Below the pieces are notes generated by a model. The model ran no database searches. It saw only the letters and a list, made by a program, of their open reading frames with translations, and was not told the origin of the DNA. The translations under genes and the position numbers were made by a program. A stretch of DNA of 64,000 bases, taken from sequence record PQ390715.1; one strand, 5' to 3'. Shown piece by piece: positions 23,191-24,494 of the stretch; within the stretch, counting starts at the first letter, position 1, and each line of letters starts with the position of its first letter. The stretch is from Escherichia phage SHEFM2K.

Positions 23191-23790
23191 ATGAGTCTTA
23201 ATTCTTTTAACCGTAACTATGGTATGTCTAGCGTTGCTCGCGAATGGTGGGGTGGTAATAACGGTTTCGTTACCATCGTAATCGATCTACCAACTGATGT
23301 TGAACTAGGTACTACCAAAGTTACTTCTGACGGTTCTGATGTTCAAGCTGAAGCGTATCAAACTGCTCTAAGTAATGCTCAATATAACCTATTCATGGTT
23401 ACCCAACTACTACAACAACGTGCAGTTCTAGTTACTACCTCTCTACTAGCTCTTGATTCAGAAGTTGTTATTCCTGCTGATTTCAAAAATGCTAATCCAA
23501 ACGTAGTTGCGTTCGGCACTAGTGGTGCTGATGTAGCAGGTGGTGCTAATTCTGTTGCATTGACTTTCATCTGTGAACGTCAAGACGTATTTAACAAGCA
23601 AGAAGTTCGTCCTGGTTCAGCATGTCCTGCTCCAGTTGATCCAACTGTTGACCTAGCTAAGTCTATCGCTCAAGCTAAAGTTTTCCGTACCAAAACTTTC
23701 GTAAGTCAAGGTACTGATGGTGTTGGTGATGCAGGTGCATCTACTGCTGTAGCAATTAAAGTACGTGCTGCTCTTCCTGTTCAACTATAA
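23191..23790 (+). CDS. abundant late protein, paralog A (virion structural candidate)
   Basis: 199 aa; AGGAG Shine-Dalgarno 8 nt upstream; shares QQRAV(L/I)...TS and TF(I/L)(C/V)ER..VFNK blocks with the next gene; strong CTA/CGT/GCT/GGT/ACT/GTT codon bias like the capsid gene. Confidence 0.6.
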   Translation: MSLNSFNRNYGMSSVAREWWGGNNGFVTIVIDLPTDVELGTTKVTSDGSDVQAEAYQTALSNAQYNLFMVTQLLQQRAVLVTTSLLALDSEVVIPADFKNANPNVVAFGTSGADVAGGANSVALTFICERQDVFNKQEVRPGSACPAPVDPTVDLAKSIAQAKVFRTKTFVSQGTDGVGDAGASTAVAIKVRAALPVQL

Positions 23791-23804
23791 TAGGAGGATA
23801 GATT

Positions 23805-24494
23805 ATGTCATATACTAATACTTCTTTTGAACGTATCAATGGTTATTCCTTTGAACGTATTCTAGGTTACTTTTGTGGCACTAACGCCCTAGCATCCATT
23901 GCTATCAGTAAGCTAGGAGACGTAAACGTTCTAGTTACTGGTGCAGTTTCTTCTTATGCTGGTCTACAACGTTTTCTAAACACTGATATTCCAGAAGAAA
24001 TTCTAGCATATCTAAATGATAAAGGTATCAAACGTATTGATGGAACTGCATTTGTTCTTGGCACACTAGAAGCTGATTACAATGCATCTTATGCAGCACA
24101 AACTAACGTTAAACGTATTGTCGATGTTGTTCAACAACGTGCGGTTATCATCGCTACCTCTAACATCGCAGGTAATGGTCTTGAAGTATTTCCAGTTACT
24201 GGTTTCACCAACGCACCTGATGGTGTATTGAGTGCAGGTTCAGTTAGTATTGCTGATGCTTCTGTTGTTACCTTCCTAGTTGAACGTGCGGGTGTCTTTA
24301 ACAAAGATCTTAAATCACCACAAGGTGTACCAAGTACTGAATCCGAAGAAGGCCGTCTACTAATTGATGATCTAACTGGTGTTCCACTACTTGCTAAAGA
24401 TGGTGTTACCGAAGTTTACCTACGTTCCCAATCTGCTGATGCAGCAGGTGATTTCGGTGTTAAACTTTTCCAATACATCCCAGCATTGGTTTAA
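23805..24494 (+). CDS. abundant late protein, paralog B (virion structural candidate)
   Basis: 229 aa; AGGAGG Shine-Dalgarno; paralog of 23191..23790; followed by a strong intrinsic terminator. Confidence 0.6.
   Translation: MSYTNTSFERINGYSFERILGYFCGTNALASIAISKLGDVNVLVTGAVSSYAGLQRFLNTDIPEEILAYLNDKGIKRIDGTAFVLGTLEADYNASYAAQTNVKRIVDVVQQRAVIIATSNIAGNGLEVFPVTGFTNAPDGVLSAGSVSIADASVVTFLVERAGVFNKDLKSPQGVPSTESEEGRLLIDDLTGVPLLAKDGVTEVYLRSQSADAAGDFGVKLFQYIPALV

Follow-up and report, generated by a model that had tools for sequence, protein, structure and literature searches.

A tandem pair of abundant late virion proteins in Asteriusvirus jumbo phages, candidate accessory components of the giant capsid

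Two adjacent plus-strand genes, here called A and B, in a 64,000-nucleotide stretch of Escherichia phage SHEFM2K (sequence record PQ390715.1; the whole stretch is referred to below as the window) encode abundant late virion proteins, and proteins of this pair have been known from virion proteomics since 2013. The two proteins almost certainly reside in the head of the particle rather than in its tail, and we see an even chance that they form a hetero-oligomeric accessory component, of the decoration or cement type, of the T=28 capsid. A first-pass annotation had drawn attention to two adjacent plus-strand genes of 199 and 229 aa, and both open reading frames (ORFs) are present exactly as described:

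23191..23790, plus strand: gene A, an ORF of 199 aa encoding an abundant virion protein
23805..24494, plus strand: gene B, an ORF of 229 aa encoding an abundant virion protein that is a paralogue of A

The window comes from the genome of an Asteriusvirus jumbo myophage. Over the 1.9 kb that surround the gene pair, identity is 99.9% to Escherichia phage vB_EcoM_phAPEC6 (phAPEC6) and 98.4-99.8% to the other isolates listed for the group (PBECO4, SP27, G17, JP4, 121Q, and others). The counterparts of gene A are phAPEC6 gp210, 121Q gp618, RaK2 gp107w, CBB_271, and GAP32 gp265, and those of gene B are phAPEC6 gp211, 121Q gp617, RaK2 gp106w, CBB_270, and GAP32 gp264. The A protein is 100% identical to phAPEC6 gp210 and to its equivalents in the 121Q-group phages, to whose B proteins that of the window is 99.6-100% identical. 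The pair forms a plus-strand island, with a minus-strand RNase H-like 5'-3' exonuclease gene diverging from it upstream and, converging on it downstream, the minus-strand gene gp212c and a GroES homologue, followed further on by a minus-strand DNA polymerase gene. The first-pass annotation had placed this island in a minus-strand replication block; the island itself and the strand of its neighbors are as described, but the surrounding block also contains the large terminase gene and is not purely concerned with replication. The RaK2 gp106w-gp107w family is arranged in this way, with an A-B pair flanked by RNase H and gp212c/GroES genes on the other strand, and this synteny is kept as far as a Vibrio phage and a marine metagenome contig. 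The RaK2, CBB, GAP32, 121Q, and phAPEC6 pairs share family, locus, operon, and synteny with the window pair, from which they show no substantive difference, and the RefSeq annotation of both genes is virion structural protein.

The first-pass annotation had proposed that A and B are abundant virion proteins, and published mass spectrometry (MS) bears this out. In virions of phAPEC6, which belongs to the same species as the window phage, gp210 was covered to 69.8% (6 peptides) and gp211 to 69.9% (13 peptides), alongside 74.9% for the major capsid protein (MCP), 68.0% for the sheath, and 9-30% for the tail-tube family. In RaK2, gp107w (53.5%) and gp106w (55.4%) were the top two of 54 virion proteins, with the MCP at 26.5% and the sheath at 28.3%; in CBB, CBB_271 reached 56.4% and CBB_270 91.3%, the highest of 55 proteins, with the MCP at 68.1%; and the GAP32 pair was detected in virions according to the CBB supplement. 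The RaK2 authors had already described the pair in 2013 as two distantly related, abundant, beta-rich proteins with gel bands at the predicted size.

Codon usage tells the same story from the side of expression. With the MCP gene as reference and all other genes as background (64 genes in the window, 564 ORFs genome-wide), A and B rank second and third in the window for MCP-like usage and second and fourth genome-wide (z = 3.7 and 3.1), ahead of the scaffold, single-stranded DNA-binding protein (SSB), and sheath genes. Leucine is encoded by CTA in 73% (A) and 68% (B) of cases, vs. 21% in the bulk of the window and 80% in the MCP gene (Fisher p = 4e-10), and arginine by CGT in 86% (A) and 100% (B). 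The bias that the first-pass annotation had likened to that of the capsid and scaffold genes is thus real, and the difference from bulk genes holds when codon adaptation is computed across the whole genome, but its description of leucine as "almost exclusively CTA" was overstated. Since the SSB gene carries the same bias, this usage marks high expression and not virion status as such. More generally, the highly expressed genes (MCP, A, B, gp228c, SSB, scaffold, and sheath) use CTA for 54-83% of leucines and avoid TTA entirely, and the bulk of the genome prefers TTA and uses CTA for 18%. CTA is the rarest leucine codon in Escherichia coli. A phage-encoded tRNA-Leu(UAG) that might explain the bias was found neither in the window nor in the phAPEC6 genome, whose seven tRNAs (locus L010, 2950-7192) include no tRNA-Leu.

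The signals around the two genes are those of a late operon, and the positions concerned are as follows:

23073..23088, plus strand: putative distal late-type promoter motif GATAAATAATATCATA, a T4-like TATAAATA core with a 3' extension
23136..23146, plus strand: putative proximal late-type promoter motif TGATAAATAAC
23152..23166, plus strand: leader hairpin GCAGG-ATATA-CCTGC, directly after the proximal motif and at, or close to, the 5' end predicted for the late transcript
23179..23184, plus strand: Shine-Dalgarno sequence AAGGAG of gene A (read from the sequence, as is the next)
23792..23797, plus strand: Shine-Dalgarno sequence AGGAGG of gene B
24505..24536, both strands by terminator scan: bidirectional intrinsic terminator with a 14-bp stem, shared with the convergent gene gp212c
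23075-23088 (plus strand), 35843-35856 (minus strand), and 38607-38620 (minus strand): the three copies of the exact 14-mer TAAATAATATCATA

The three copies of TAAATAATATCATA in the window are also the only three in the whole 352.6-kb phAPEC6 genome, and every one lies in sense orientation just upstream of a gene: gp210 (gene A), the MCP gene gp225c, and gp228c of the head-morphogenesis cluster. No copy of the 14-mer lies in the 49 kb that encode tail and baseplate; at the sheath gene the ATAAATAA core stands alone, without the extension. It is this extended form that is informative; the short motifs GATAAATA and TATAAATA by themselves are not enriched over shuffled sequences. The distal motif, in the form [GC]ATAAATA, also occurs in CBB and RaK2, and within the proximal motif TGATAAATA is invariant across 12 distinct leaders from different genera. 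The proximal motif of the RaK2 operon, GATAAATAACTTTA, is identical to the promoter motif of RaK2's own MCP gene, with 14 nt shared. Motifs of the same class precede the MCP, scaffold, gp238, gp232, and other genes, and the window also contains the gene for a gp55-like late sigma factor (gp237c). The A-B operon therefore appears, as far as such motifs can tell, to be transcribed late from T4-type promoters, in keeping with the first-pass call of late genes; one of the motifs is shared exactly with the MCP gene. As in T4-type late units, with their TATAAATA promoters and gp55-like sigma factor, [GT]ATAAATA motifs are found here 40-110 nt upstream of genes; unlike in those units, the strongest head genes carry the extended TAAATAATATCATA, and the A-B operon has two tandem motifs and a conserved leader hairpin. 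The TAAATAATATCATA copies may define a small "super-late" or strong head regulon, and copies with one mismatch precede gp205c, which encodes a virion protein, and phAPEC6 gp312c.

The leader hairpin is conserved, and its stem covaries: it reads GCAGG/CCTGC, GTAAG/CTTAC, or GCCAG/CTGGC in different genera, with a sixth pair that is A-U, U-A, C-G, or U-G; over the 12 distinct leaders, 95.8% of cells are paired and four of the six pairs show changes on both sides, values reached by none of 500 shuffles, and slid controls are paired at 25-36%. It is present in the predicted minimum free energy fold and is possibly a 5'-terminal stem-loop that stabilizes the mRNA. The same fold also predicts a second leader hairpin with the Shine-Dalgarno sequence in its loop (23169-23189). 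As the first-pass annotation had noted, both genes have near-consensus Shine-Dalgarno sequences; AGGAGAT at gene A is invariant in the 12 leaders, and the spacer between the gene A stop codon and gene B measures 14 nt. The strong terminator that it had pointed out is equally evident (RNA fold of -17 kcal/mol, z = -5.0, with none of 200 shuffles as stable), and the same element is annotated as a terminator in phage G17.

The tandem duplication suspected from shared sequence blocks proved well founded. A and B align by BLASTP at E = 8e-9 (35% identity over 89 aa, both of those blocks included), and both match PHROG 9326 ("virion structural protein") essentially end to end, A at E = 1.3e-86 (residues 1-199 on profile positions 1-195) and B at E = 3.4e-86 (residues 3-229 on 1-195). 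In the family alignment the homology runs over the full length, including the conserved N- and C-termini, with an extra segment of about 30 residues in B, relative to A, that forms two helices. By these comparisons, A and B are real, full-length paralogues. Their duplication is, on sequence evidence, ancient, because in an alignment of 60 A- and B-type proteins identity is at least 36% among A proteins and at least 46% among B proteins but at most 32% between the two groups, and the nearest neighbor of every one of the 60 sequences falls within its own group.

The family is narrow. By tblastn, A and B occur in exactly the same 73 phage records, whose hosts are Escherichia, Klebsiella, Salmonella, Erwinia, Yersinia, Serratia, Pectobacterium, Cronobacter, and Xanthomonas, with one Vibrio phage, and among 1.84 billion representative proteins searched with the family profile, no more than 42 members were found; a lone large match to the profile (1054 aa, with lectin and immunoglobulin (Ig) repeats) looks spurious. 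In the PA5oct-like Pseudomonas phages, whose MCP is 67% identical to that of the window, tblastn detected no copy of A or B even at E <= 1, and neither PA5oct nor Atu_ph07 has an opposite-strand island next to RNase H or any positional analogue that we could find. A and B also evolve far faster than the MCP (50-57% vs. 90% identity to CBB). In the marine branch, the island (Vibrio phage 2.275.O, L007 1135-3206; marine metagenome contig, L038 7068-9390) has three genes, not two, between the same flanking genes; structure and tblastn identify the additional, upstream gene of Vibrio phage 2.275.O (227 aa) as a third paralogue, with a late-type promoter and a hairpin-like leader of its own. In three distant metagenomic members of 290-300 aa (P0130, P0131, and P0135), about 70 residues are inserted close to the C-terminus; the insert contains repeated GG[ST]GY motifs, has no Pfam match, and suggests, from the sequences, a surface-exposed site that tolerates an extra domain.

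Structure prediction followed by Foldseek, which the first-pass annotation had put forward as a check, gave no confident homology to a non-virion protein or to any protein of solved structure. AlphaFold2 models built on the 60-sequence alignment (for A, a predicted local distance difference test score (pLDDT) of 85 and a predicted template modeling score (pTM) of 0.80; for B, 81 and 0.77) show a predicted two-layer alpha/beta sandwich in which a beta-sheet packs on one long helix. The first ~19 residues of both proteins are predicted to be disordered, yet they are among the most conserved in the family and carry the arm motif FxRNYG...E[FW]WGGNNGF. Searched against the PDB, the models matched nothing at E <= 0.001, and in a viral predicted-structure library they matched only family members and uncharacterized jumbo-phage proteins; no tail-tube, HK97, Soc, Hoc, gpD, or phiKZ capsid protein turned up in these structural searches. 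Neither Pfam nor NCBIfam gave a match, and searching the sequences in the PDB, whether with the individual proteins or with the family profile, yielded chance-level matches only, so that the first-pass impression of proteins with no recognizable T4 homologue stands. The label "hemagglutinin repeat-containing protein" on phAPEC6 gp211 has no Pfam or NCBIfam support. Taken together, the models provide evidence for an orphan fold without a counterpart among solved structures. Of the roles that the first-pass annotation had listed, that of a vertex protein is unlikely given the abundance of A and B and the absence of an HK97 fold (neither that fold nor a Gp23 Pfam match was found, as would be expected of gp23- or gp24-like proteins).

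The tail tube, another of those roles, has a longer history: the size of the proteins (21-24 kDa), their predicted beta-richness, and their abundance led the RaK2 authors to propose one of the pair as the tube in 2013, with the label "putative tail protein" in their Table S3. It is nevertheless very unlikely, in our estimation, that A and/or B form the tube or a repeated layer associated with sheath or tube, even though phAPEC6 and CBB tails do have tail decoration proteins and hair-like fibers. When A and B are compared with the true tube and sheath genes, the tube PHROGs are found elsewhere: three phAPEC6 proteins encoded directly downstream of the sheath gene gp277c (gp275c, gp274c, and gp273c) match them at E = 5e-86, 8e-80, and 9e-227 (phrog_4542 for the first two; phrog_13438; weakly phrog_45) and were themselves detected separately in phAPEC6 virions (9-30% coverage). 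A and B match none of the tube PHROGs or Pfam families, their models do not show a tube-type beta-sandwich, and the genes lie far from the tail module (about 81 kb from the sheath gene in phAPEC6), with a promoter extension common to head genes and not to the sheath gene; tail decorations and fiber rings, for their part, are low-copy structures at odds with the abundance of A and B. Tube-family genes beside the sheath gene and the non-tube models thus disfavor the tube for both proteins. The three tube-family genes (locus L006, 32644-35307, minus strand, outside the window) are consecutive paralogues of 25, 29, and 40 kDa, annotated in phAPEC6 only as hypothetical proteins. Even less probable, to our minds, is a passenger status for A and B, as highly expressed late products that merely co-purify or are loosely trapped and have their real role inside the cell, for example as assembly chaperones linked to GroES. 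The A-B operon does always adjoin the GroES homologue, and the phAPEC6 virion list does contain non-structural proteins (SSB, the RecA-like UvsX, topoisomerase, and thymidylate synthase); these co-purifiers, however, reach 7-17% coverage, whereas A and B are at or above the level of the MCP in four independent CsCl-purified preparations and are visible as abundant gel bands in RaK2.

A location inside the head deserves more consideration, and we regard it as unlikely rather than implausible. A and B would then build the inner body, which in phAPEC6 is radiation-sensitive and measures 91 x 18 nm, or account for other densities inside the head; they would be packaged along with the DNA and might be ejected into the host. 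An inner body is present in phAPEC6 and 121Q, and by our own estimate its volume would need several hundred copies of proteins of 20-25 kDa. The inner-body proteins of phiKZ are lineage-specific paralogues as well, an analogy that fits the lineage-restricted, fast-evolving A and B, and the promoter extension of the pair is common to gp228c, an extremely acidic protein (net charge -54) from the head-core gene cluster. Like phiKZ inner-body and T4 internal proteins, A and B are abundant and lineage-specific, and a paralogous family in phiKZ and an inner body in this phage group complete the likeness. They differ from those proteins in being apparently unprocessed, with the N-terminus kept, in showing no similarity to them, and in their moderate charge. 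Where a T4-like head has a gp21-type protease, its core and internal proteins are as a rule processed, and such a prohead protease is present here (gp227c); despite it, RaK2 gp106w and gp107w run at the predicted size, and the N-terminal peptides of CBB_270 and phAPEC6 gp210 are apparently kept. In addition, A and B are only mildly acidic (pI 4.6-4.8), neither basic nor of extreme charge, the authors of the phAPEC6 study saw no resemblance to the inner-body proteins of phiKZ, and the PDB gave no fold match to phiKZ capsid or internal proteins.

We return, then, to the reading that A and B are accessory subunits of the capsid shell. The head is favored over the tail because the high-copy tail parts (sheath and tube) are accounted for and because A and B are at least as detectable as the MCP in independent preparations. 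Within the head, a shell-associated role of the decoration or cement type is suggested by the promoter extension found only with head genes, the lack of apparent processing, the moderate acidity, the fast evolution, the absence from phages with a related MCP, and the tolerance of inserts, and capsid decoration appears to be the best remaining of the first-pass candidates. The obligatory co-occurrence of A and B, their translational proximity, and their similar abundance suggest that they act together. We envisage that the two proteins would act jointly, as a hetero-oligomer, on the T=28 head shell, that they would bind it through the conserved, intrinsically disordered N-terminal arm, apparently kept in the mature particle, and that they would thereby stabilize or decorate the giant capsid. 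The capsid maps of phAPEC6 and 121Q (9-10 Å) do contain unassigned outer densities. That A and B are apparently unprocessed, with the N-terminus kept, is suggested by RaK2 gel migration and by arithmetic on the published coverage. In CBB_270, the five tryptic peptides too short to be detected add up to 19 residues, exactly the number left uncovered, which implies that residues 5-20 were seen; for phAPEC6 gp210 (6 peptides, 139 residues), just one fully tryptic combination fits, and it contains NYGMSSVAR (residues 9-17). With one missed cleavage allowed, 141 of 167 solutions for gp210 include an N-terminal peptide.

The likeness is to T4 Soc and Hoc, lambda gpD, and other capsid decoration or cement proteins, which, like A and B, are small, non-essential-looking, encoded away from the main head cluster, lineage-restricted, and evolving faster than the MCP. 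Such accessory proteins are also late, highly expressed, high-copy, and not proteolytically processed, and A and B appear to be so too, judging by promoter motifs, codon bias, MS coverage, gel migration, and coverage arithmetic. A and B differ from them in having no sequence or fold similarity, in being two obligatorily co-occurring paralogues and not one protein, and in that their binding to the capsid is something we infer. It is also possible, although we hold this more specific proposal to be somewhat doubtful, that A and B represent an unclassified type of capsid cement, anchored by the disordered N-terminal arm and absent from the smaller PA5oct-type capsids, and hence a lineage-specific invention that helps to scale up an HK97-type shell.

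Several points weigh against an accessory role in the shell. Sequence coverage is a crude proxy for copy number, and ratios resembling the exponentially modified protein abundance index (emPAI), calculated from published numbers of peptides, are so saturated that they do not rank copy numbers, with the portal and the tube family scoring much like A and B. Other abundant small virion proteins of phAPEC6 (gp347, gp306c, gp253, and gp037c) compete for the same densities. The retention of the N-termini is deduced from summary statistics and not from peptide lists, the place of A and B in the virion is likewise deduced, and the argument for a hetero-oligomer is confined to co-occurrence, operon structure, and similar abundance. 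Neither in the PDB nor in the viral structure library did A and B show structural similarity to any known decoration or cement protein, and a comparison with the decoration families (Soc, Hoc/Ig-like, gpD-like, Dec, pb10, Psu, and others) found no likeness of fold or sequence. Our literature search found no near-atomic model of a Rak2-like or Asteriusvirus capsid, and phiKp24 is not a relative in this respect.

The inference from sequence alone that these are "abundant late virion proteins" was sound, although it rediscovers published knowledge: both the pair and the tail-tube speculation appeared in 2013 for RaK2 gp106w/gp107w. What is new here is that the tube role is disfavored, that a promoter element unique in the genome links the pair to the MCP gene, that the leader hairpin covaries, and that A and B strictly co-occur, together with the age of their duplication and the evidence for an orphan fold. 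These proteins are among the most abundant components of widely isolated jumbo phages of about 350 kb that are considered for therapy and biocontrol, and thirteen years after their detection they still have neither an assigned place in the virion nor a structural relative. If they form an outer lattice on the T=28 shell, they would account for densities left unassigned in the maps of 121Q and phAPEC6 and would add both a new fold to the capsid-stabilizing proteins and an obvious high-copy display platform; if they belong to the inner body, they would represent a second way, unrelated to that of phiKZ, of organizing very long packaged genomes.

Several other features of the region merit mention. 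The most fully covered protein of the phAPEC6 virion table is gp347 (75% MS coverage; MK817115 260690-261067, plus strand; locus L011, 35690-36067; outside the window), a protein of 14 kDa and pI 8.3 whose gene is a lone plus-strand gene within a minus-strand block, mirroring the A-B island, and which is a rival for the unassigned capsid densities. The gene for the virion protein gp228c (37723-38571, minus strand; 282 aa, net charge -54, pI 4.06) sits between those for the prohead protease and the portal and has the extended promoter of the A-B operon as well as MCP-like codon usage; the protein is a candidate prohead-core or inner-body component. Immediately downstream of gene B, gp212c (24542-25267, minus strand) overlaps the GroES homologue (25260-25559, minus strand) by 8 nt; it stays in synteny with the A-B operon in every relative examined, belongs to a PHROG of its own (13349), and has no Pfam match, and its orthologue has been detected by MS in RaK2 virions only (gp105, 21.7% coverage), not in those of phAPEC6 or CBB. 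On the other side of the pair, the RNase H-like exonuclease gene (21986-23023, minus strand) is annotated with 281 aa in phAPEC6 (start at 22831) and with about 328 aa in G17, 121Q, and CBB, and an ATG in frame lies at 22972. The start given for phAPEC6 probably makes the protein too short, and with the longer form the divergent intergenic region before gene A would measure about 218 nt, not 359 nt. Finally, the late promoter of the MCP gene (~35835-35868, minus strand) lies in the loop of an inverted repeat, TTTTCAGT...ACTGAAAA, which reads TTTTCTGT...ACAGAAAA in CBB (with compensatory changes) and has a similar form in RaK2; this repeat might serve as an operator or as a site where read-through transcripts are processed, or it might form a DNA structure.

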